From Escherichia phage C1: a DNA stretch of 46,667 nucleotides. The notes beneath the pieces are model-generated. The model did not search any database, was not told the origin of the DNA, and saw only the letters and a program-made list of their open reading frames with translations. Both the position numbers and the translations under genes were made by a program. The stretch lies in the sequence record NC_054651.1; one strand, 5' to 3'. This document shows, piece after piece, positions 37,629 through 46,362 of this stretch (positions are counted from its first letter, which is position 1; every line of letters begins with the position of its first letter).

Positions 37629-37811
37629 TCAGAACACGATAATCAGCTCATCCATTACTCTGCGCTTACCTTCTCCATTAAACACGCGCACAACGCGATT
37701 TACGCGGATGGATTCCATTGCATTACGTGCCTGCTTGCTCATAAAGTTCTGCGCGCCAACGTGACCGAGTTCTTGTTCCAGCTTCTCGCGACGGTAGATA
37801 GTTTTTGCCAT
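37629..37811 (-). CDS. hypothetical small basic protein
   Basis: 60 aa ORF. Confidence 0.3.
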   Translation of the reverse strand: MAKTIYRREKLEQELGHVGAQNFMSKQARNAMESIRVNRVVRVFNGEGKRRVMDELIIVF

Positions 37812-38323
37812 TTATTGCACCTCGTAAGAGTTAGTGATTGCCTTAATGCGGCGACGATACCATTGCATGATGTGTTCGTTATGCCAGTTGCTCATTTTGT
37901 TACCCCTTATAACCTGATTTAGAAACTGCCACTGAGATAATGATGAATGCCACGATAATCAGACTGGCGATAAGTTCGAATGTTGCTCCTGTCATTTACT
38001 TAACCCATACGCTGAGATTAAAGCCTGCATTGCCGCGTTCCAGAATGCTTCCGCAGGAATGCTATTGTTTGCGCGGTTAACTGCAATGCGTGCCATAGCT
38101 TGTGCATCTTCAAATTCTTCACGGTCTTTGATTTTCATTATGCGTACCTGTTATATGAAAGTTTTTTACATGCGTAATATTGTTTTTCTGCATAAGCAAA
38201 GGTCTTTCCAGTCTTCATCATCGCATCAATGAATTTGTGCGCGTCACCCTTTGACTCGCAATACAGAGCTATTGCGTATTTGGTAGGTTTCATCTCTTCA
38301 CCCTCGTTTGTTCCGATGAGTTC

Positions 38324-38352
38324 AATCTACATCAACGACGATTCTACGTCAA
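38324..38352 (-). promoter_or_regulatory. sigma70-type promoter (TTGACG-17-TAGATT) for leftward operon
   Basis: Read on minus strand; two copies of the GTAGAWT motif. Confidence 0.5.
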
Positions 38353-38680
38353 CAGGAATGCGTTAAAAACGTGCTCGTGGGGTAAATTTTTGCTCGTGGG
38401 GTAGGTCGTGGGGAAGGGGGCATGCCCCACTGGAAACCCTTGTGCCATGCGGCTTTTAACATGTTTGGGGAAGTGGGGCAGATTTCATACCCATCCCCTT
38501 ATAAATATATTCAAATAATCCATTTGTTAATATTATGTTAATTACTACCTATAATATGAATAATAATATTACCCATTAACCCAAATAATAATAATTTTAT
38601 TATATTACATATACTTAGAGGAGAGCTTCGTGGGGAAGGTGATGTTCCCCACGGCTGCCCCACGTTACCCACGTTAGTCG
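38350..38680. repeat. origin-like region: CGTGGGG iterons in both orientations flanking a ~120 bp AT-rich core, plus GGGGCATGCCCC palindrome
   Basis: Three direct CTCGTGGGG copies at about 38354, 38383, 38396; palindrome about 38405; AT-rich 38490..38620; further CGTGGGG/CCCCACG copies at about 38628, 38647, 38658. Confidence 0.55.
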
Positions 38681-38749
38681 TATTTGATGTTGCATGATTC
38701 AATAGTTATGATATGATTCAATCATAATTTGTTACTGGTGGAGGATTTT

Positions 38750-38968
38750 GTGAAACTTGACAAATACGGCAAAAAGAATGCAGCTCTTTCTGGATTATCG
38801 GTGGTTTCAGTAGGGGAGACTGTGATGATTGACTCGAAGAGATTTGGGGGCATTGCAAGCCTGAGGAACGCATTAAACTATTTTATGCGCAGGAATGAAG
38901 GCATGAAATTCTCAACAAAGGTTGGATACCCTGACAAAGACATGGTTTACGTAAAAAGGATTTCATGA
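38750..38968 (+). CDS. hypothetical small protein, first gene right of origin-like region
   Basis: GTG after GGAGGA SD inside track ORF 38729..38968. Confidence 0.35.
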   Translation: MKLDKYGKKNAALSGLSVVSVGETVMIDSKRFGGIASLRNALNYFMRRNEGMKFSTKVGYPDKDMVYVKRIS

Positions 38969-40521
38969 TGATCACAGCGCAAGACATCTTCAACGAAGCA
39001 AGGGAATTAAAAGTATCTCCTGCTCGCGTCGCCTTCCATCATGGCATGACGCCAAGCTCAAACATGTGGCTTGACATTAAGGAAGGCAAGGAGCGTGATG
39101 TAACGTACTCAGAAACAGAACTGACCAGTGAGCACCGGACTGATTTACTGTCTCGTTATGCAATCGCTGCAGCTCGTGCTGTTCAGTTCCCAATAAATAC
39201 ATCGTTCATGCATTTACTTGGGTGCGTTGCCAGCGCAATGACGAGAAACTTTAGCGTTGAGTATTACCATTCAGAGCTTCCAGTTTCTCTTTACGTGGTT
39301 ACTTCGCAGCCTCCATCAGCAGGGAAAACCGCTATCAACTCAATGCATATGAATCCGGTGAAGATTGAATACGACAACCTTTCCAAAAAGATGGAAAAGC
39401 AAATCATAAAAATAAATCTTCGCATCGAAGAGTTGATGAAGGCATACAAAGAGGCCAGCAATCAGAATGCAAAGGCACTAATCGGAGATGATATTGCTCG
39501 CGAAAAGGAGAAGCTGGAGGAGCTTTATACGATCACATATCCACTGACGGACGCAACGCCGGAGGCTGTTCAGCATCAGGCAATCCATGAAGGTGGTTTT
39601 TTTAATCTGATAAGTGACGAGGCAAGCGTTCTTAACACATGTCTTGGCCTCTCTTACGGAAAGGAAGGTGGAAAGGCAAACGCCGAAGTCATCCTGAAGG
39701 GCTGGGATGGCGGATTTATTGGTTCTGCTCGTGTTGGTCGTGGCGTTTCATCTGGTTATGTGCTTGGAAACATAAGTGTGATTGCTCAGGATGAAAGTAT
39801 TGATGCCATTCTTGCCGCTGGCGACAGGGGGAACGGGCTTTCTGAACGTTTCCTCATGTTGCGAGAGCAATCAATGCTTGGCTATCGCGAACACTGGGAC
39901 ATGGTTAATGATTGCCCTGTAAGCAAGCCAATGCCAGACAGCTTGAGGTCGGAATATGCAAGATTTATACATAATGTTGTGTCAGCAGAAAAAACAAAAC
40001 TGACGCTTCACAATGACTCAGCAAGAATGATCGGCCTGTTACGAAATCAGTGGGAGAAAAACTTCCTTCCCGGCGGTAAGTGGGACCACGTTCTTCTTCG
40101 TGGCGCGATGGGTAAAGCTGATAAGCAAATAATCCGTCTGGCAGCAATATTTCACGCTGCTGAAAACTGGTGCGATGGAGGAAAGCGTTCAAAGATTATC
40201 GGTGAAAATGAGATTAGTCGCGCCATCAGTGTTTATGACGCACTGACAAAAACATTCACTGATGCTGTTGAATCAAATGGGTATGCTGGTGAGCGTTCTG
40301 AATTTGATGTTGTTGCCGAAAAGCTACGCTCTGCCGCTCAGAAAGGAAAAACAAACGTAACGGTGAAGTGGCTTTATGATTCACTTAAAAACGTGCGACC
40401 ATTCAAAGGGATACCTAAAATTTATGACCGACTCAGATCAAGCGTATTGCCATCACTTGAAGAGGATGGTTACTGCGTTTTTATTGGTAATACTGTCCAC
40501 ATTAATCCGAGGTTGAAATGA
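38965..40521 (+). CDS. large hypothetical protein, putative replication-associated (DUF3987-like?)
   Basis: 518 aa; degenerate P-loop-like SQPPSAGKT; adjacent to origin-like region; function not resolved. Confidence 0.4.
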   Translation: MMITAQDIFNEARELKVSPARVAFHHGMTPSSNMWLDIKEGKERDVTYSETELTSEHRTDLLSRYAIAAARAVQFPINTSFMHLLGCVASAMTRNFSVEYYHSELPVSLYVVTSQPPSAGKTAINSMHMNPVKIEYDNLSKKMEKQIIKINLRIEELMKAYKEASNQNAKALIGDDIAREKEKLEELYTITYPLTDATPEAVQHQAIHEGGFFNLISDEASVLNTCLGLSYGKEGGKANAEVILKGWDGGFIGSARVGRGVSSGYVLGNISVIAQDESIDAILAAGDRGNGLSERFLMLREQSMLGYREHWDMVNDCPVSKPMPDSLRSEYARFIHNVVSAEKTKLTLHNDSARMIGLLRNQWEKNFLPGGKWDHVLLRGAMGKADKQIIRLAAIFHAAENWCDGGKRSKIIGENEISRAISVYDALTKTFTDAVESNGYAGERSEFDVVAEKLRSAAQKGKTNVTVKWLYDSLKNVRPFKGIPKIYDRLRSSVLPSLEEDGYCVFIGNTVHINPRLK

Positions 40522-40709
40522 GAACAATATCAGGCGAACTTTGCCGCTCAGAAGGTTCATGGCATTTCAGACCGTATGGTTATTCGACGTGGTTTTTCTG
40601 GAGTGGTATTAACAAAGTATGGATTCGATCTAATTACCACGTGCTTGATGATTACTGGCACAGATTTTGTATTGGTTATGTTGATATTTCAAAATTGATG
40701 ATTAAATGA
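40518..40709 (+). CDS. hypothetical small Trp-rich protein
   Basis: 63 aa ORF. Confidence 0.3.
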   Translation: MRTISGELCRSEGSWHFRPYGYSTWFFWSGINKVWIRSNYHVLDDYWHRFCIGYVDISKLMIK

Positions 40710-40718
40710 GGTAATTAT

Positions 40719-41024
40719 ATGGCTAACCTGCAACTTGCCGTCAAAGGTGAATACTTCGATGCCATGATTCGCGGAGAGAAAACGGAAGAGTATCGCCTTT
40801 TTAATGACTACTGGAAGAAGCGCCTTATTAACTTTAAAGATAGCGGACAGATTGGAAGGAAGTACGAAAGGTTAATTATCACAAAAGGATATCCAAAGAA
40901 GGACGATAAATCCAGGCGTATTGATATCCCATACGATGGATGGACGGTTAAGACCATCACCCACCCACACTTCGGTCCTGACCCGGTGGAAGTGTTCGCA
41001 ATAAAAGTTAACCTCAAAGCATAA
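40719..41024 (+). CDS. ASCH-like domain protein
   Basis: 101 aa; N-terminal LAVKGEYFDAMIRGEKTEEYR resembles ASCH signature. Confidence 0.45.
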   Translation: MANLQLAVKGEYFDAMIRGEKTEEYRLFNDYWKKRLINFKDSGQIGRKYERLIITKGYPKKDDKSRRIDIPYDGWTVKTITHPHFGPDPVEVFAIKVNLKA

Positions 41025-41052: not shown

Positions 41053-42006
41053 TTATCTTCTAACTGACATTTTCTCTATCAACTCGCCAGCGTCATAAAT
41101 TTTTCTCCTGATTCTCTTTGCCATCCTGATAGTGTCAGCATCATCAGGAAGCATCACCGGAAGTCCTGCGTTTTCCGCAGCGCAAAGTTCGTTAAATTTA
41201 TAGTTAACTATGCAACGCAATATCGCCTTCATCTCATCGCTAACAGAACGCACCACTTCCCACATGTTTTCCGGCGACCAGCAGCACCAGACATGAGCTC
41301 CAGTGAAGTAATGGCACTTCCACGCGTCGGCATAATCAGATACCAGGTAAATGAACTTTCCGTTATCTTCTCCGATTGGGCTTATCGCCCCGCGCGTGAG
41401 CTTTCCGTTGATAGCTGAGTCTTTGTTGTATCCAGCACGGAAAAACGTTCTGAATGAATCACCATCCATGCCAATGAACGCCACGTTACACGGCTTCATT
41501 GTGTCAGCGCGTATCATCTCAACCGCAATAAGCTCTCCAGATTTAGCTCTGACGACGTTAACGTCGCAACCAATACCATTTATCAACGTCCACTCATTCA
41601 TCGCGACACGCGTCGTTTTAGCCATGATTGCGGCAACTTCCTGCTCGGTGATGAAGTCGTCATTATGATTTATCTTCGGTAACTCCTTCCTGATTGCTTC
41701 CAGTTTTTCACGCGGGTGCATATTCAGGAATCCACCAAGTGCCTCAAGTGCTTCGGGAAAGCTCATGCCAGAGAGTTTCATCAGCCAGGTGATTCCGCTG
41801 CCGTTTCCACACTGGTTACAGATGGCGCCGCCGTCACCTTTGTAGTCCAGGTTATCATCGAATCGAAATCTGTCGCGACCGCCGCAACTTGGGCATGGCT
41901 GGTGCTTACCATTGAAAACTCTGCTATTCACACTGACGATAGACATGATGGCGGCCTGCCAGTTCCCAAGCATTTTTGGCTCAATGTCTTTCCAGTCGTA
42001 TCTCAT
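41053..42006 (-). CDS. DNA primase (zinc-ribbon + primase core)
   Basis: Track ORF 41053..42117; likely start MRYDWKD; zinc-ribbon CPSCGGRDRFRFDD...CNQCGNGSG typical of phage primases. Confidence 0.65.
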   Translation of the reverse strand: MRYDWKDIEPKMLGNWQAAIMSIVSVNSRVFNGKHQPCPSCGGRDRFRFDDNLDYKGDGGAICNQCGNGSGITWLMKLSGMSFPEALEALGGFLNMHPREKLEAIRKELPKINHNDDFITEQEVAAIMAKTTRVAMNEWTLINGIGCDVNVVRAKSGELIAVEMIRADTMKPCNVAFIGMDGDSFRTFFRAGYNKDSAINGKLTRGAISPIGEDNGKFIYLVSDYADAWKCHYFTGAHVWCCWSPENMWEVVRSVSDEMKAILRCIVNYKFNELCAAENAGLPVMLPDDADTIRMAKRIRRKIYDAGELIEKMSVRR

Positions 42007-42008
42007 AA

Positions 42009-42060
42009 ATTGACCCTTGATTGTTGGTGTAGATTGAGTATAAGCTAACTGACGTAGAAA
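42009..42060 (+). promoter_or_regulatory. promoter region for rightward replication/recombination operon with GTGTAGATTG and TGACGTAGAAAC motifs
   Basis: TTGATT-16-TATAAG candidate; same motif pair as at 15690..15735. Confidence 0.45.
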
Positions 42061-42081
42061 CATCAACAAAAGGATATAGCA

Positions 42082-42345
42082 GTGTTCCTTGATAGCATTT
42101 TTAAGAGGATTTTTCATGGCAAGCCAATCCCTGTTGCCTTCGGATACCCGCCACGAAGCAACACATGGTTAACCATATACAGAAGACAGAGAACTGGAGA
42201 ATGGATTTTTGAGTGGGATGATTTGTTTGCCGATGAGAGGCCAGAAGATTATCTATGGAATCTTAGTTATATGTATTTTTATAACGGAATAGATGATGAA
42301 ACAAAGAAACAAGCAATTGAACACCTTGGCGCGAGGATTTTGTGA
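42082..42345 (+). CDS. hypothetical protein
   Basis: 87 aa ORF, GTG start after AAGGAT. Confidence 0.35.
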   Translation: MFLDSIFKRIFHGKPIPVAFGYPPRSNTWLTIYRRQRTGEWIFEWDDLFADERPEDYLWNLSYMYFYNGIDDETKKQAIEHLGARIL

Positions 42346-44291
42346 TGCATAAAATCGACGCAATGATTGCGGAACTTGACATAGATAAATTGCGGTCAGT
42401 TGTTCATACAGGGGAAATTGAGCCACGACCATATCAGTGGCTGGTTTATGAAAAGACGGCTGAAGTTATCCGCAAGTTTGGCAAAGACCCGAAACCAAGT
42501 TTTGTGACTGCATCGGTAGGTGCGGGAAAGACCATTATGATTGCCATGATTGCGCGACGCTTTCAGGATATGGGGTGGGAAGGTCTTGTTATTGCCAGGC
42601 AGGGGGAAATTATTGAGCAGGATGCGGAAGAGCTGTGGAATCTGAGTGTTAAAAACTCACTTTTCAGCGCGTCTCTTGGCAGAAAATCAACGGCATACCC
42701 GCTTATTGCTGGTACTGAGGGAACAATAATAAATGGCCTTTTCGATAAGAAGGACGAGTCAGGTAATGTTCTTTCTAAAGGTGCGCTTTCCGATTTTTGC
42801 CCTCGCTATATCCTTATTGACGAATGCCACCAGATGAACTGGGAGGACGTGGTAAGCGAAAGTCCTGAAACGCAATATGGCGTAATAATGACTGAGCTTA
42901 ACCGCAGATGTAAAGCTAAATACGGACATGATGTCATTGTTATTGGATACACAGGTAGCCCGTTTCGTGGCACCGACTCGATTAAGGGTGCTTACTGGAA
43001 ACATGAAATAGTAAACATTGACACTAAATATCTTGTTGATATTGGGTTTCTTGTGCCTACGATTTTTGGCCTGCATGACATTGATGATTTGCATTACGAC
43101 CTGTCAGCATTTGAGGCGTCAGGAAGCGATGGAACGCAGGACTTCACTGCCGAGCAACTCAAGCAGATGCAAAAAGAAATCCTTGAGCAAGGGACACTCA
43201 CGCAGAAAATCATGCTCAAGGTTATGGAGCTGACAAAAAACAGAAATGGCGTATTGATCACATGCGCTGGCAAGAAGCACTGTCAGGAGGCGGCAAAATA
43301 TTTACCTGAAGGAAGTTATGCGATCGTAACTGAAGATATGGGTATGAAAGCCAGACGCAAGGCATTAAAGGATGCATACACTGGCAAGATTAAATATGTT
43401 TTCCAGATTGGTTGCTTGACGACAGGCGTCAATATCCCACTCTGGGATACAAGCGTCATATTACGAAAAATAATGTCACTCACTCTTCTTGTGCAGCTGC
43501 TTGGTCGCGGGATGCGCCTGCTGAAGAAAGAGCAAATTGATGCAGGGTATCATAAAGAGGACCATCTGGTTCTTGACTTCTCTGGCACGATGTTTGAGCT
43601 TGGTCAGCTATATGCAGACCCAATTCTGGAAGAAGCCGAAGCGCAACGTTCAAAACGCAGTGGTGAACAGGTTCCGTGTCCTAAGTGCGGAACAATGAAC
43701 AGCCCATATGCGCGTCGCTGCATTGGCAAAGATGCATTGTCGCCAGATGGTAGATGCGAGGAGTTTTTCAGTTATATTCGTTGCGGTTTCGATAAGCACG
43801 GCATCCGTATTTTTGATGATGGTTGCGGTACTAAAAACGACCCAACGGCGCGTTATTGCCGACATTGCGATCACGTTTTGCGCGACCCGAATGCGGCACT
43901 TAATGAGCGTGCGTATACCGATAATGAGTGGGCTGATGTTATGGATTTCAAAGTCCAGTTAACGAAGGATGGAGAAGGTATTTTGTATCGCTACTGGATT
44001 AATCGTTGTGATGGGAAAGAGGGATGGGCTAACGAAGTTTTCTACCCCTATGGCGGCGCAACTCACATGAAAAACATGTTTAAGGCAAAAGCGGTCTTTC
44101 CTCACCTTGATGATAAGTCAATGGCGGGTAAAATCCTGAAGTGCCAGAACGCCAAGCAGTTCATGATGTATGCGGGATTGATTAAAGCGCCAAAACGCAT
44201 CACACATCGTATTAACGATAAAGGTCGTGACATAATCCACAGAAAAGATTTTGCAGGAGAGAATAGTGAAAAAGCGATTCAAGCAGCATGA
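42342..44291 (+). CDS. superfamily-2 DNA helicase (DExH box) with C-terminal zinc-ribbon region
   Basis: 649 aa; Walker A ASVGAGKT, DECH box (LIDECHQ), motif VI-like QLLGRGMR, C-terminal CPKC...C...C cluster. Confidence 0.8.
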   Translation: MMHKIDAMIAELDIDKLRSVVHTGEIEPRPYQWLVYEKTAEVIRKFGKDPKPSFVTASVGAGKTIMIAMIARRFQDMGWEGLVIARQGEIIEQDAEELWNLSVKNSLFSASLGRKSTAYPLIAGTEGTIINGLFDKKDESGNVLSKGALSDFCPRYILIDECHQMNWEDVVSESPETQYGVIMTELNRRCKAKYGHDVIVIGYTGSPFRGTDSIKGAYWKHEIVNIDTKYLVDIGFLVPTIFGLHDIDDLHYDLSAFEASGSDGTQDFTAEQLKQMQKEILEQGTLTQKIMLKVMELTKNRNGVLITCAGKKHCQEAAKYLPEGSYAIVTEDMGMKARRKALKDAYTGKIKYVFQIGCLTTGVNIPLWDTSVILRKIMSLTLLVQLLGRGMRLLKKEQIDAGYHKEDHLVLDFSGTMFELGQLYADPILEEAEAQRSKRSGEQVPCPKCGTMNSPYARRCIGKDALSPDGRCEEFFSYIRCGFDKHGIRIFDDGCGTKNDPTARYCRHCDHVLRDPNAALNERAYTDNEWADVMDFKVQLTKDGEGILYRYWINRCDGKEGWANEVFYPYGGATHMKNMFKAKAVFPHLDDKSMAGKILKCQNAKQFMMYAGLIKAPKRITHRINDKGRDIIHRKDFAGENSEKAIQAA

Positions 44292-44714: not shown

Positions 44715-44743
44715 CATTTACGTGATGATGAGTGAGGTTAACA

Positions 44744-45682
44744 ATGAAAGTCTATTTCAATAATGAATTAACTAATAAGCAATACCACACTGACACCGAG
44801 CACATTAACGGATCTGGCCTGTGGAATCTGTATGACAGATGCCCCGCAGCTTGGCGCTACAAAGACGAAGAAGATGAGCAGTCAAAAGCTCTTGTCTTCG
44901 GAACCGGAAGCCATACCGCGTTGCTTGAACCTGAACGTTTCGATGCTGAATATGCTCGTATGCCAACCAAAGAAGATTTTGGTGATGACCTGCTCGTTAC
45001 CGTTAGTGACATGAACTCGTGGGCGAAAGAGCGCGGAATTAAAGGGCTTTCAGGGAAGTCGAAAGCTGAGGTAATCAAAATCATTCAGGCGACTGGCGAA
45101 CCAGTGAAGATTTACGATGTAATCCGTGAAGAAGCTGAAAAAGCTGCGGCGGGAAAGCAAATGCTGGAAGGTGGTGATTATGATGCCATTCAGCAAATGC
45201 GTGCTGTAATCCACGCGAACAGCTATTACAGCAGCCTTCTCGCTGGCGCTTATGCTGAGGTGTCAATTCTTGGTGAGCTTAACGGAGAAAAAGCAAAGGT
45301 TCGCTTCGACTGCCTGACAAAAGGTGGCGACATAATTGACTACAAGACAGCAGTAAGCGCAAAGCCTGATGAATTTTTCCGTCATGCTGCGAGACTTGGC
45401 TACTTCATGAAGATGGCTATGCAGCACGACATGTTTGTTTCGGCATATGGTCATGCGCCGCGTTCTGTAAACCTTTTAGTTCAGGAAAAGAAATCTCCGT
45501 TTATTCCTGCTTTGATTCGTTTGACTGAAGAGCAATTACGAATCGGTCGCATTCAGTTGAATGGTGCAATGGAAATTTACAAGGCGTGCAAAAAAGCCAA
45601 TTCGTGGCCGGGATATTCAATGGGTAATCCTGTCATCGAAATGGAGACGCCTGAATGGTTCAAAAAACAGTTTAATTTATAA
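44744..45682 (+). CDS. recombination exonuclease (PD-(D/E)XK family)
   Basis: Track ORF 44732..45682; ATG at MKVYFNN; motif IIDYKT; partner position upstream of ERF gene. Confidence 0.5.
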   Translation: MKVYFNNELTNKQYHTDTEHINGSGLWNLYDRCPAAWRYKDEEDEQSKALVFGTGSHTALLEPERFDAEYARMPTKEDFGDDLLVTVSDMNSWAKERGIKGLSGKSKAEVIKIIQATGEPVKIYDVIREEAEKAAAGKQMLEGGDYDAIQQMRAVIHANSYYSSLLAGAYAEVSILGELNGEKAKVRFDCLTKGGDIIDYKTAVSAKPDEFFRHAARLGYFMKMAMQHDMFVSAYGHAPRSVNLLVQEKKSPFIPALIRLTEEQLRIGRIQLNGAMEIYKACKKANSWPGYSMGNPVIEMETPEWFKKQFNL

Positions 45683-45693
45683 TCAGTGAGGTG

Positions 45694-46362
45694 ATGAAAG
45701 TGATTTTCTCGGAACAGAAAGCGAATCTGATTAAGGCTCTGGTTGAGGCTCGCAAGGTGATGAGTAGCGGCGCAAAGAAAAACGCCAAAAACCCACACCT
45801 GAAAAGCAATTACGCAAACCTTGAGTCGTTTCTTGATGCAATACGCCCAGCGCTTGAGGCTAACGGTCTTATAATCATCCAGAATGCCATTGATGGTGAC
45901 TCAATGGATGTGTTGAAACTTGAAACGACGATAATGCATGAGTCTGGCGAGTACATGTCATCCGTGATGCCAATGCCTGTTGCTAAAAAAGATGCGCAGG
46001 GGTATGGCTCCGCAATGACGTATGCTCGCAGATATTCCATCGCAGCAATGTTTGGTATTGCCCAGGCTGATGATGACGGTAATGCTGCTCGCAAATCTCC
46101 AAAAGATGCAGTTGCATTGATTCGCAACGCATCCAGCATGGAAGAGTTAGCTTCAATCTATGGCGAGGAATACAAGTCATTTCGTGGTGATGATGCAGCA
46201 ACTCGCGTTATTGTTGGTGCTTATCAGGAGATGAAGGCAAAATTCATGGTATCAGGCGAATCATTCAACCCTGCAAAACTGGCTAAACCGCAACCACAAC
46301 AACCAGAACCGCAGGAAGAAACAAAAGCCGAACATAAACCAACTCCAATTGAAGGATTTTAA
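45694..46362 (+). CDS. ERF-family single-strand annealing protein
   Basis: 222 aa; block GSAMTYARRYSIAAMFGIAQADDDGNAA matches ERF signature; followed by ssb. Confidence 0.6.
   Translation: MKVIFSEQKANLIKALVEARKVMSSGAKKNAKNPHLKSNYANLESFLDAIRPALEANGLIIIQNAIDGDSMDVLKLETTIMHESGEYMSSVMPMPVAKKDAQGYGSAMTYARRYSIAAMFGIAQADDDGNAARKSPKDAVALIRNASSMEELASIYGEEYKSFRGDDAATRVIVGAYQEMKAKFMVSGESFNPAKLAKPQPQQPEPQEETKAEHKPTPIEGF

Follow-up and report, generated by a model that had tools for sequence, protein, structure and literature searches.

Repeats and an AT-rich core between divergent operons

The complete 46,667 bp genome of Escherichia phage C1 (NC_054651.1) was analysed and is referred to below as the window; comparisons labelled S192 concern this same genome (ON239132.1, reverse-complemented). 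The phage is a lytic, Jersey-like small siphovirus with E. coli as its host. Its nearer relatives are Vi II-E1, STGO-35-1, Akira, Bas78/79 and HC6, and farther ones are found among Klebsiella and Aeromonas phages. The intergenic gap between the leftward small early genes and the rightward replication block carries short repeats (iterons) on both sides of an AT-rich core, and is described here as a candidate replication origin that is exchanged between phages together with a helicase gene. From left to right, the features of the locus are:

38324..38352, − strand: leftward early promoter-like site, TTGACG-17-TAGATT, found by promoter scan; its −35 is the left boundary of the exchanged cassette
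38376..38413, + strand: left iteron array, three direct copies of TCGTGGGG, start-to-start 19 and 12 bp
38408..38430: left inverted repeat, GTGGGG-N11-CCCCAC, made up of iteron 3 and a reversed copy at 38425–38430; contains GGGGCATGCCCC
38464..38478, + strand: two degenerate copies in direct orientation, TTTGGGGAAGTGGGG, bordering the AT core on its left
38496..38622: AT-rich core and candidate DNA-unwinding element, 127 bp, 18% GC compared to 46.6% for the genome
38527..38555, + strand: best sigma-70-like match, TTAATA-17-TATAAT, inside the core, 10/12 matches
38607..38618, + strand: ACATATACTTAG block at the right edge of the core, unique in the genome
38629..38673: right iteron array, CGTGGGG on the + strand at 38629 and reversed copies at 38647, 38658 and 38667 (the last as ACCCACG)
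38684..38712, + strand: rightward promoter-like site before the replication genes, TTGATG-17-TATGAT, a consensus match only

The heptamer CGTGGGG occurs six times in the 46,667 bp (both strands), and all six copies fall within 38376–38664 (289 bp), four on the plus strand (38376, 38395, 38407 and 38629) and two on the minus strand (38647 and 38658). The initial annotation, made from the sequence alone, had correctly noted copies in both orientations here. It had also described three direct copies of a longer sequence spaced about 13–29 bp apart; TCGTGGGG is indeed present exactly three times on the left, but CTCGTGGGG is found in two of these only, the third being GTCGTGGGG, and the start-to-start spacing is 19 and 12 bp rather than the range given. 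With up to one mismatch the locus has nine copies, the additional ones being AGTGGGG at 38472 (+), CCCCACT at 38425 (−) and ACCCACG at 38667 (−). The shorter forms are similarly concentrated: the 321 bp between 38360 and 38680 hold 8 of the 13 genomic copies of GTGGGG (Poisson P ~5e-17) and 9 of the 38 copies of TGGGG (P ~1e-12). The inverted arrangement GTGGGG-N(9–15)-CCCCAC occurs at only two places in the genome, 38408–38430 and 38630–38652, and in none of 100 shuffles.

The iterons bracket the core, lying at 38376–38478 on the left and 38629–38673 on the right. Three forward copies and one reversed copy are followed by two weak forward copies, the AT core, one forward copy and three reversed copies (left + + + −, right + − − −), making the locus mirror-symmetric about the core. 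The first two copies of the right array form an inverted repeat, CGTGGGGAA-N7-TTCCCCACG, at 38629–38653. The reversed copies of this array are 11 and 9 bp apart, or about one helical turn, and the corresponding distances in Pectobacterium phage Ymer are 10 and 10 bp.

An alignment of ten relatives shows the GGGG core of the repeat to be invariant and the preceding T almost so. In the inverted repeats the spacer length is kept (N10–N11) while the spacer sequence varies. The 12 bp perfect palindrome that the annotation had pointed out, GGGGCATGCCCC, is present at 38417–38428 as a single copy in the genome, and is missing from all nine aligned relatives (Vi II-E1 and Bas78 carry GGTTGGTTGCCCC in its place). 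Judged by this alignment, the palindrome is a local variant of the spacer, and the conserved feature is the GTGGGG-N11-CCCCAC inverted repeat around it. Both inverted repeats are marked in the Vi II-E1 record as 'repeat of sequence GTGGGGCAACCAACCTGCCCCACGA', with no function stated. Just beyond the left inverted repeat, at 38431–38470, the window shares with GP-1-type phages a 40 bp segment that differs from Vi II-E1, Akira and Bas78; these three have a terminator-like T-run after the left inverted repeat, and the segment represents a small mosaic patch inside the candidate origin.

The AT-rich stretch of about 120 bp that was noticed initially corresponds to the core at 38496–38622, and within it are the 100 bp that, by nearest-neighbour free energy, are less stable than any other such window in the genome (38513–38612, z = 5.4; the runner-up has z = 3.2). 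The core sequence is 73–82% conserved in Klebsiella and Aeromonas phages, and is unusually well conserved in the ten-relative alignment, with the blocks TTGTTAAT, TATAATATGAATAATAAT and ACATATACTTAG. TATAATATGA and the TTGTTAAT block are conserved in nine of the ten aligned relatives, and the sigma-70-like site in the core may serve transcriptional activation or be an additional early promoter. The counterpart of ACATATACTTAG in phages Skate and VSt472 is ATACATATACTTAG (L005 2528–2541; L011 ~2727–2740), despite the unrelated repeats and helicase of these phages, and a near copy, ACATATACATAG, is present in a further locus (L068). This block may be recognised by a component that the cassettes have in common, for instance the conserved primase or the RNA polymerase of the host.

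On the left, a 53 bp block (38300–38353) is kept at 85–96% in more than 100 Jersey-like phages, even where the sequence to its right differs. Along with the leftward promoter it contains the first early gene's 5′ leader, and it has a sharp recombination boundary at the −35. The promoter-like sites suggest that the locus also drives both divergent early operons, and since they lie in or beside the core, transcription may assist in opening it. Between 38300 and 38760 there is no DnaA box (TTWTNCACA, even at 8/9 matches), no IHF consensus and no GATC, and one Fis-like match; with no DnaA boxes or IHF sites, the locus does not fit an origin of the DnaA-dependent (oriC) type or one opened by a host initiator.

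A swappable cassette of repeats, core and helicase

The left boundary became apparent in comparisons with phage Skate, which by blastn is 87–92% identical to S192 or Bas78 on both flanks of the locus. Homology stops at 38352, i.e., at the −35 of the leftward promoter, and returns at ~41021, the 3′ end of the primase gene; repeats, core and helicase therefore form one mosaic unit. The genes of this unit, and the primase gene beyond it, are as follows:

38750..38968, + strand: 72-aa gene, within the cassette, not tied to the repeats
38965..40521, + strand: gene for a 518-aa DUF3987 helicase (superfamily 6 (SF6), MCM-like AAA+)
40518..41024, + strand: two accessory open reading frames (ORFs) of 63 aa and 101 aa, occupying the remainder of the cassette as far as its right boundary (~41021)
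41053..42117, − strand: primase gene with a T7/P4-type zinc ribbon, convergent, outside the cassette

In Skate the cassette has a TTATCC repeat, its own AT-rich core and a 495-aa helicase without BLAST similarity to the 518-aa protein. Further occupants of the same slot are ACCGGTAA with a 526-aa protein (ZCEC08), CGGGAAGC (Sf11) and TAAATGCCA with a PrimPol-PriCT-DUF3987 fusion (YX3973).

Using the conserved primase as bait, 55 loci were retrieved from IMG/VR, and the 47 that had the promoter anchor TCTACGTCAA together with a helicase-sized ORF within 1.5 kb were compared. An AT-rich core is present at all 47 (minimum GC over 100 bp, 0.13–0.23), and their helicases fall into six clusters. The repeat motif of each cluster is given below, with the mean number of copies in the origin region and the enrichment relative to the rest of the locus:

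Helicase cluster 0: TGGGG, 8.0 copies, 27-fold
Helicase cluster 1: TTATCC, 6.6 copies, 25-fold
Helicase cluster 2: GGGAAC, 9.8 copies, 164-fold
Helicase cluster 3: GGGCGA, 4.3 copies, 44-fold
Helicase cluster 4: CCGGTA, 10.3 copies, 106-fold
Helicase cluster 5: CCGGTA, 7.0 copies, 55-fold

The matrix of motifs against clusters is nearly diagonal, with off-diagonal means of 1.0 copy or less, except for the secondary motifs TCAACC (cluster 1) and ATGCCC (cluster 3). Outside cluster 0, TGGGG is found at 0 to 1 copy and without enrichment, and the GGGAAC repeat set is confined to cluster 2. Clusters 4 and 5, which have CCGGTA in common, have helicases that are 51.6% identical. Individual loci show the same kind of layout around the core, for example one (L063) with six copies of GTTCCC to the left and GGGAAC copies to the right, and another (L031) with thirteen copies of CGGTAA. 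Conservation in related phages, one of the checks suggested at the outset, thus came out in favour of an origin: over 47 loci and six clusters the repeats track the neighbouring helicase gene.

Among the cluster 0 loci, the order, orientation and positions of the repeats are conserved. Relative to the promoter anchor, the left array positions +23, +42 and +54 hold TGGGG in most of the 21 loci (the +42 copy is absent in about half of those of Klebsiella type), the degenerate copies were seen at +110/111 and +118/119 in eight loci, and the positions of the right array are kept across the cluster. The helicase is the sole constant protein of these 21 TGGGG-type cassettes, and the ORFs downstream of it vary. 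More distant homologues of the helicase, at 62% identity (a metagenome contig) and 49% (Ymer), still adjoin TGGGG/CGTGGGG repeats and AT-rich DNA, and the arrangement in Ymer, CGTGGGG...CCCCACG GTT CCCCACG GTT CCCCAC, is that of the right array of the window.

The small gene upstream of the helicase behaves differently, being represented in the TGGGG-type cassettes by four unrelated families or missing altogether. The 72-aa protein of the window has no family match and eight close homologues only. The initial annotation had put forward the genes to the right of the repeats as candidates for an initiator or loader; the 518-aa helicase is the initiator proposed here, while the 72-aa product was rejected as the iteron binder, as it is not conserved with the repeats. 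It is a poor initiator candidate because its gene is replaced or absent within the TGGGG group, and in Vi II-E1, where an AP2-type gene takes its place, that gene carries a pseudogene annotation. The versions of the small gene comprise a 72–79-aa family, an AP2-domain protein of 85–107 aa and two further families; in all of them its stop overlaps the helicase start, and both S192 and Skate have the ending ...KRIS*.

The helicase as presumed initiator, and comparison with known origins

The 518-aa protein matches Pfam PF13148 (DUF3987) over residues 79–429 (E = 1.3e-34; 120.5 bits against a cut-off of 27) and is a DNA helicase by PHROGs. Proteins with DUF3987 are SF6 helicases, distant relatives of MCM that have a winged helix-turn-helix at the C-terminus, and are presumed to be phage replicative helicases (PMC4889955). 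One member, the PriCT-DUF3987 protein AgaPH, unwinds DNA in vitro (PMC11724360). A search of Protein Data Bank (PDB) chains by sequence gave no meaningful match to the 518-aa protein, and only fold comparison was informative: a confident AlphaFold2 model built with 46 homologues (predicted local distance difference test, pLDDT, 90.2; predicted template modelling score, pTM, 0.86) has MCM subunits, and nothing else, as the structural neighbours at the top of the list. The C-terminus of the model is predicted to form an H-E-H-H-E-E unit, the element order of a winged helix. In our own reading of the alignment there is a Walker A-like PPSAGKT (residues 116–122, K121 invariant), a Walker B-like LISDEAS (residues 215–221, S217 and E219 invariant) and a conserved SERF motif in which R295 is invariant. 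The protein is proposed to be an origin-binding, self-loading initiator-helicase. The primase (Pfam Zn_Ribbon_Prim) is 87–90% conserved between S192/Bas78 and Skate and is kept across all cassette types; presumably it partners whichever helicase occupies the cassette.

The origin-like architecture described in the initial annotation is supported by the co-variation of repeats and helicase over the 47 loci, the unstable core, the mirror symmetry and the adjacent MCM-like helicase. The region 38353–38680 is therefore probably the replication origin of this phage, with a probability of roughly 0.7. The support is comparative and structural, and from it the steps of binding, melting, loading and initiation can be proposed. 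About ten short repeats with a TGGGG core (CGTGGGG in this phage), split around the AT core, would be bound on both sides by the 518-aa MCM-like DUF3987 helicase, most likely via its C-terminal domain. The helicase would assemble on the two flanks of the core in mirror orientation, melt the 127 bp core (18% GC) and load itself as the replicative helicase, after which the conserved phage primase would be recruited and prime synthesis. Repeats, core and helicase would be inherited jointly, as a replicon-specificity cassette exchanged among related phages.

The closest parallels are the origins of Staphylococcus aureus pathogenicity islands (SaPIs), which have six to twelve iterons of 5–6 bp split around a central AT-rich region and running in opposite directions (PMC9371898). 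The iterons are bound by the winged-helix C-terminal domain of SaPI Rep, an AAA+ hexameric helicase that serves as the replicative helicase and works without a loader (PMC9371898). The phage locus likewise has at least two iterons per side in opposite directions, the arrangement used to recognise SaPI origins (PMC9371898), and resembles SaPI and other phage-inducible chromosomal island (PICI) origins (SaPI1, SaPI5, SaPIbov1) in its split iterons, AT centre, opposed orientation and specificity of the iterons for the cognate helicase. It differs in position, as the SaPI origin is immediately downstream of rep whereas the phage locus is upstream of the helicase gene and between divergent promoters, and in setting, a virulent enterobacterial siphovirus rather than a Gram-positive satellite. 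By fold comparison the phage DUF3987 helicase is closer to cellular MCM than to the SaPI Reps. Binding and melting have been demonstrated for the SaPI Reps, whereas the phage locus is known here from sequence and a structural model.

With other DUF3987 (SF6, MCM-like) helicases, including SCCmec Cch and AgaPH, the 518-aa protein shares the Pfam match and the MCM-like AAA+ fold, with a predicted C-terminal element order like that of a winged helix. Its gene lies near the primase gene, while in YX3973 the slot holds the PrimPol-PriCT-DUF3987 fusion. No origin or DNA-recognition site was found described for phage DUF3987 helicases, AgaPH having been characterised only as a helicase (PMC11724360).

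Plasmid and lambdoid iteron origins are alike in having repeated initiator sites beside an AT-rich unwinding element, and in the swapping of origin and initiator as a module. In lambda the iterons are part of the gene for the initiator, O, and host DnaB is brought in by a distinct loader, P; the Rep proteins of plasmids (pSC101, R6K and P1 types) are not helicases and usually need DnaA and DnaB. In the window the repeats are intergenic, the neighbouring genes include no O, P or DnaB-loader families, and, unlike lambda and plasmid origins, the presumed initiator is the helicase itself. Satellite phage P4 requires a pair of repeat clusters at separate sites (ori and crr), and its superfamily 3 helicase is fused to the primase. 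The likeness to P4 is in a phage-encoded helicase-initiator acting on short origin repeats, as proposed here, and in the zinc ribbon family that the primase shares with P4 alpha. The window has no CGTGGGG outside 38376–38664, all repeats being in one 300 bp locus, and its helicase is SF6-like and separate from the primase, unlike that of P4.

Other genes of this part of the genome are:

38293..38138, − strand: first leftward early gene
42342–44291: SNF2/DEAD helicase gene
44732–46362: genes for a PDDEXK-type exonuclease (DUF3799) and an ERF single-strand annealing protein, after the replication genes

The exonuclease and ERF protein are a recombination module, and could support late, recombination-dependent replication. 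In Vi II-E1 and Skate an HNH homing endonuclease gene lies between the primase and SNF2/DEAD helicase genes, and the window has no insertion there (42118–42341). A 60-aa leftward early gene (37629–37811) matches Pfam DUF7540 (E = 2e-32), and one relative has, in the corresponding early leftward block, a gene whose annotated role is to activate the PrrC anticodon nuclease of the host.

Alternative explanations and implications

Several points weigh against an origin at this locus. The searchable literature yielded no experiments on initiation, binding or melting for this phage or its relatives. GC skew, another of the checks proposed initially, does have its cumulative minimum near 38 kb, but its sign flips with gene orientation (e.g., in the primase window at 41–42 kb), and it is unusable because it follows the coding strand and not replication. 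Within cluster 0, a finer comparison of the helicase C-terminal domain with the bases next to TGGGG gave no information on co-variation, since this domain is nearly invariant there (few positions differ). T1-like phages with helicases of about 35% identity have no TGGGG cluster within 4 kb of the gene, so the link cannot be extended to Drexlerviridae. Lastly, both divergent promoters have the repeats immediately upstream of them (at the leftward one, copies are centred near −62), and if a protein encoded in the cassette controlled transcription there, repeat and helicase would co-vary in the same way.

One T1-like Klebsiella phage has a helicase of 39% identity; its divergent intergenic region (L017 188–850) carries TGCGCAA palindromes at ~354 and 485 but no TGGGG repeats, and may be a control or origin site of another kind.

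The strongest rival, given that both promoters border on the repeats, is that the locus is a transcriptional control region only, the repeats being operator or activator sites for a cassette-encoded protein (possibly the helicase), the core being strong promoters with UP-like DNA, and replication starting elsewhere or by recombination. The left repeats begin 24 bp upstream of the leftward −35 and the right ones end 11 bp before the rightward −35; nine promoter-like sites are found in 37900–39100, where 3.4 are expected; the best sigma-70 match lies within the core, its −10 and −35 conserved in relatives; and the ERF protein and PDDEXK nuclease could support recombination-driven replication. 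Yet the leftward promoter stays the same next to no fewer than five clearly distinct sets of repeats, and is therefore independent of any particular repeat. The sole constant partner of the repeats is a helicase of replicative type and no recognisable regulator, and eight to thirteen mirror-symmetric copies around the least stable DNA far exceed the needs of a promoter. A purely transcriptional role is thus unlikely. Transcriptional control is also compatible with an origin, as iteron origins commonly double as autoregulatory sites.

A second possibility, that the inverted repeats are hairpins rather than iterons (RNA stem-loops acting as terminators, insulators or 5′ stabilisers, or DNA cruciforms bracketing the core), is much less probable. 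Taken as single-stranded DNA, the inverted repeat on the right has a folding energy of −9.8 kcal/mol (z = −5.2), and the Vi II-E1 copies have −9.1 and −13 kcal/mol, whereas the left inverted repeat of the window is no better than shuffled sequence (z = −0.67) and is without the T-run that follows it in Vi II-E1, Akira and ZX4. Paired changes at the inner positions of the arms are frequent (GGGGCA/TGCCCC versus GGGGAA/TTCCCC), and Ymer has a longer palindrome at the same place, but non-complementary inner positions occur in the left repeats of S192, Bas78 and pIS4-A and in the right repeat of S13e. Most copies are single direct repeats without a partner, and other cassettes have many direct repeats and no hairpin (e.g., the six GTTCCC copies). 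Terminators of this kind would block transcription into the core, whereas the flanking operons point away from it, and a permissive Rfam search of 38000–39000 gave no match.

A packaging (pac) signal or physical genome end, with the repeats recognised by terminase, is very improbable and was rejected. The idea arose because the records of Akira (L003/L004), Ymer (L014), KpV2811 and ZCKp20p and two metagenome contigs (L043 and L051) are linearised within the AT core or right next to it. Most likely this stems from assembly or from convention; AT-rich repeated DNA is a frequent place for assemblies to break on technical grounds. The S192 record and those of most relatives are opened elsewhere, and circular annotation is common among the relatives. 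The candidate small terminase (139 aa, its gene upstream of that for TerL) shows 98.6% identity among S192, Skate and YX3973, whose repeats are wholly different (CGTGGGG, TTATCC and TAAATGCCA) and follow the helicase instead.

A replication origin read by the adjacent helicase remains the preferred interpretation. Iteron origins with an unwinding element are textbook knowledge and self-loading helicase initiators are well established; the finding extends what is known and does not overturn it. No paper was found in the searchable literature that links Vi II-E1, Jerseyvirus or DUF3987 to an origin or iterons, and the seszw genome-reduction paper does not discuss non-coding regions. As far as this literature shows, three things are new: an origin assigned to these lytic phages of enterobacteria as a group, the linking of a phage DUF3987 helicase to a defined set of repeats, and the swapping of at least six origin-helicase specificity cassettes at one sharply bounded slot. 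A wider reading, offered tentatively and with the odds slightly against it, is that the locus is a bacterial-virus counterpart of MCM double-hexamer loading without a loader of the ORC/Cdc6 type, in which TGGGG would be read by the DUF3987 C-terminal domain, two mirror-oriented rings would form across the AT core, and at least six interchangeable cassettes in one slot would define replicon compatibility groups among near-identical lytic phages.

For Jersey-like phages and their relatives among the small siphoviruses (Macdonaldcampvirus, Skatevirus, Roufvirus and others), no description of an origin was found; these phages are widely used in the biocontrol of Salmonella, E. coli and Klebsiella, and in genome-reduction and synthetic-phage work. 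A defined origin with its cognate helicase would show engineers which non-coding DNA, and which pairing of helicase and repeats, to keep. A defined origin cassette would also explain the recombination hot spot between the promoter −35 and the 3′ end of the primase gene, and would offer a simple enterobacterial system for origin recognition and self-loading by an MCM-like helicase.

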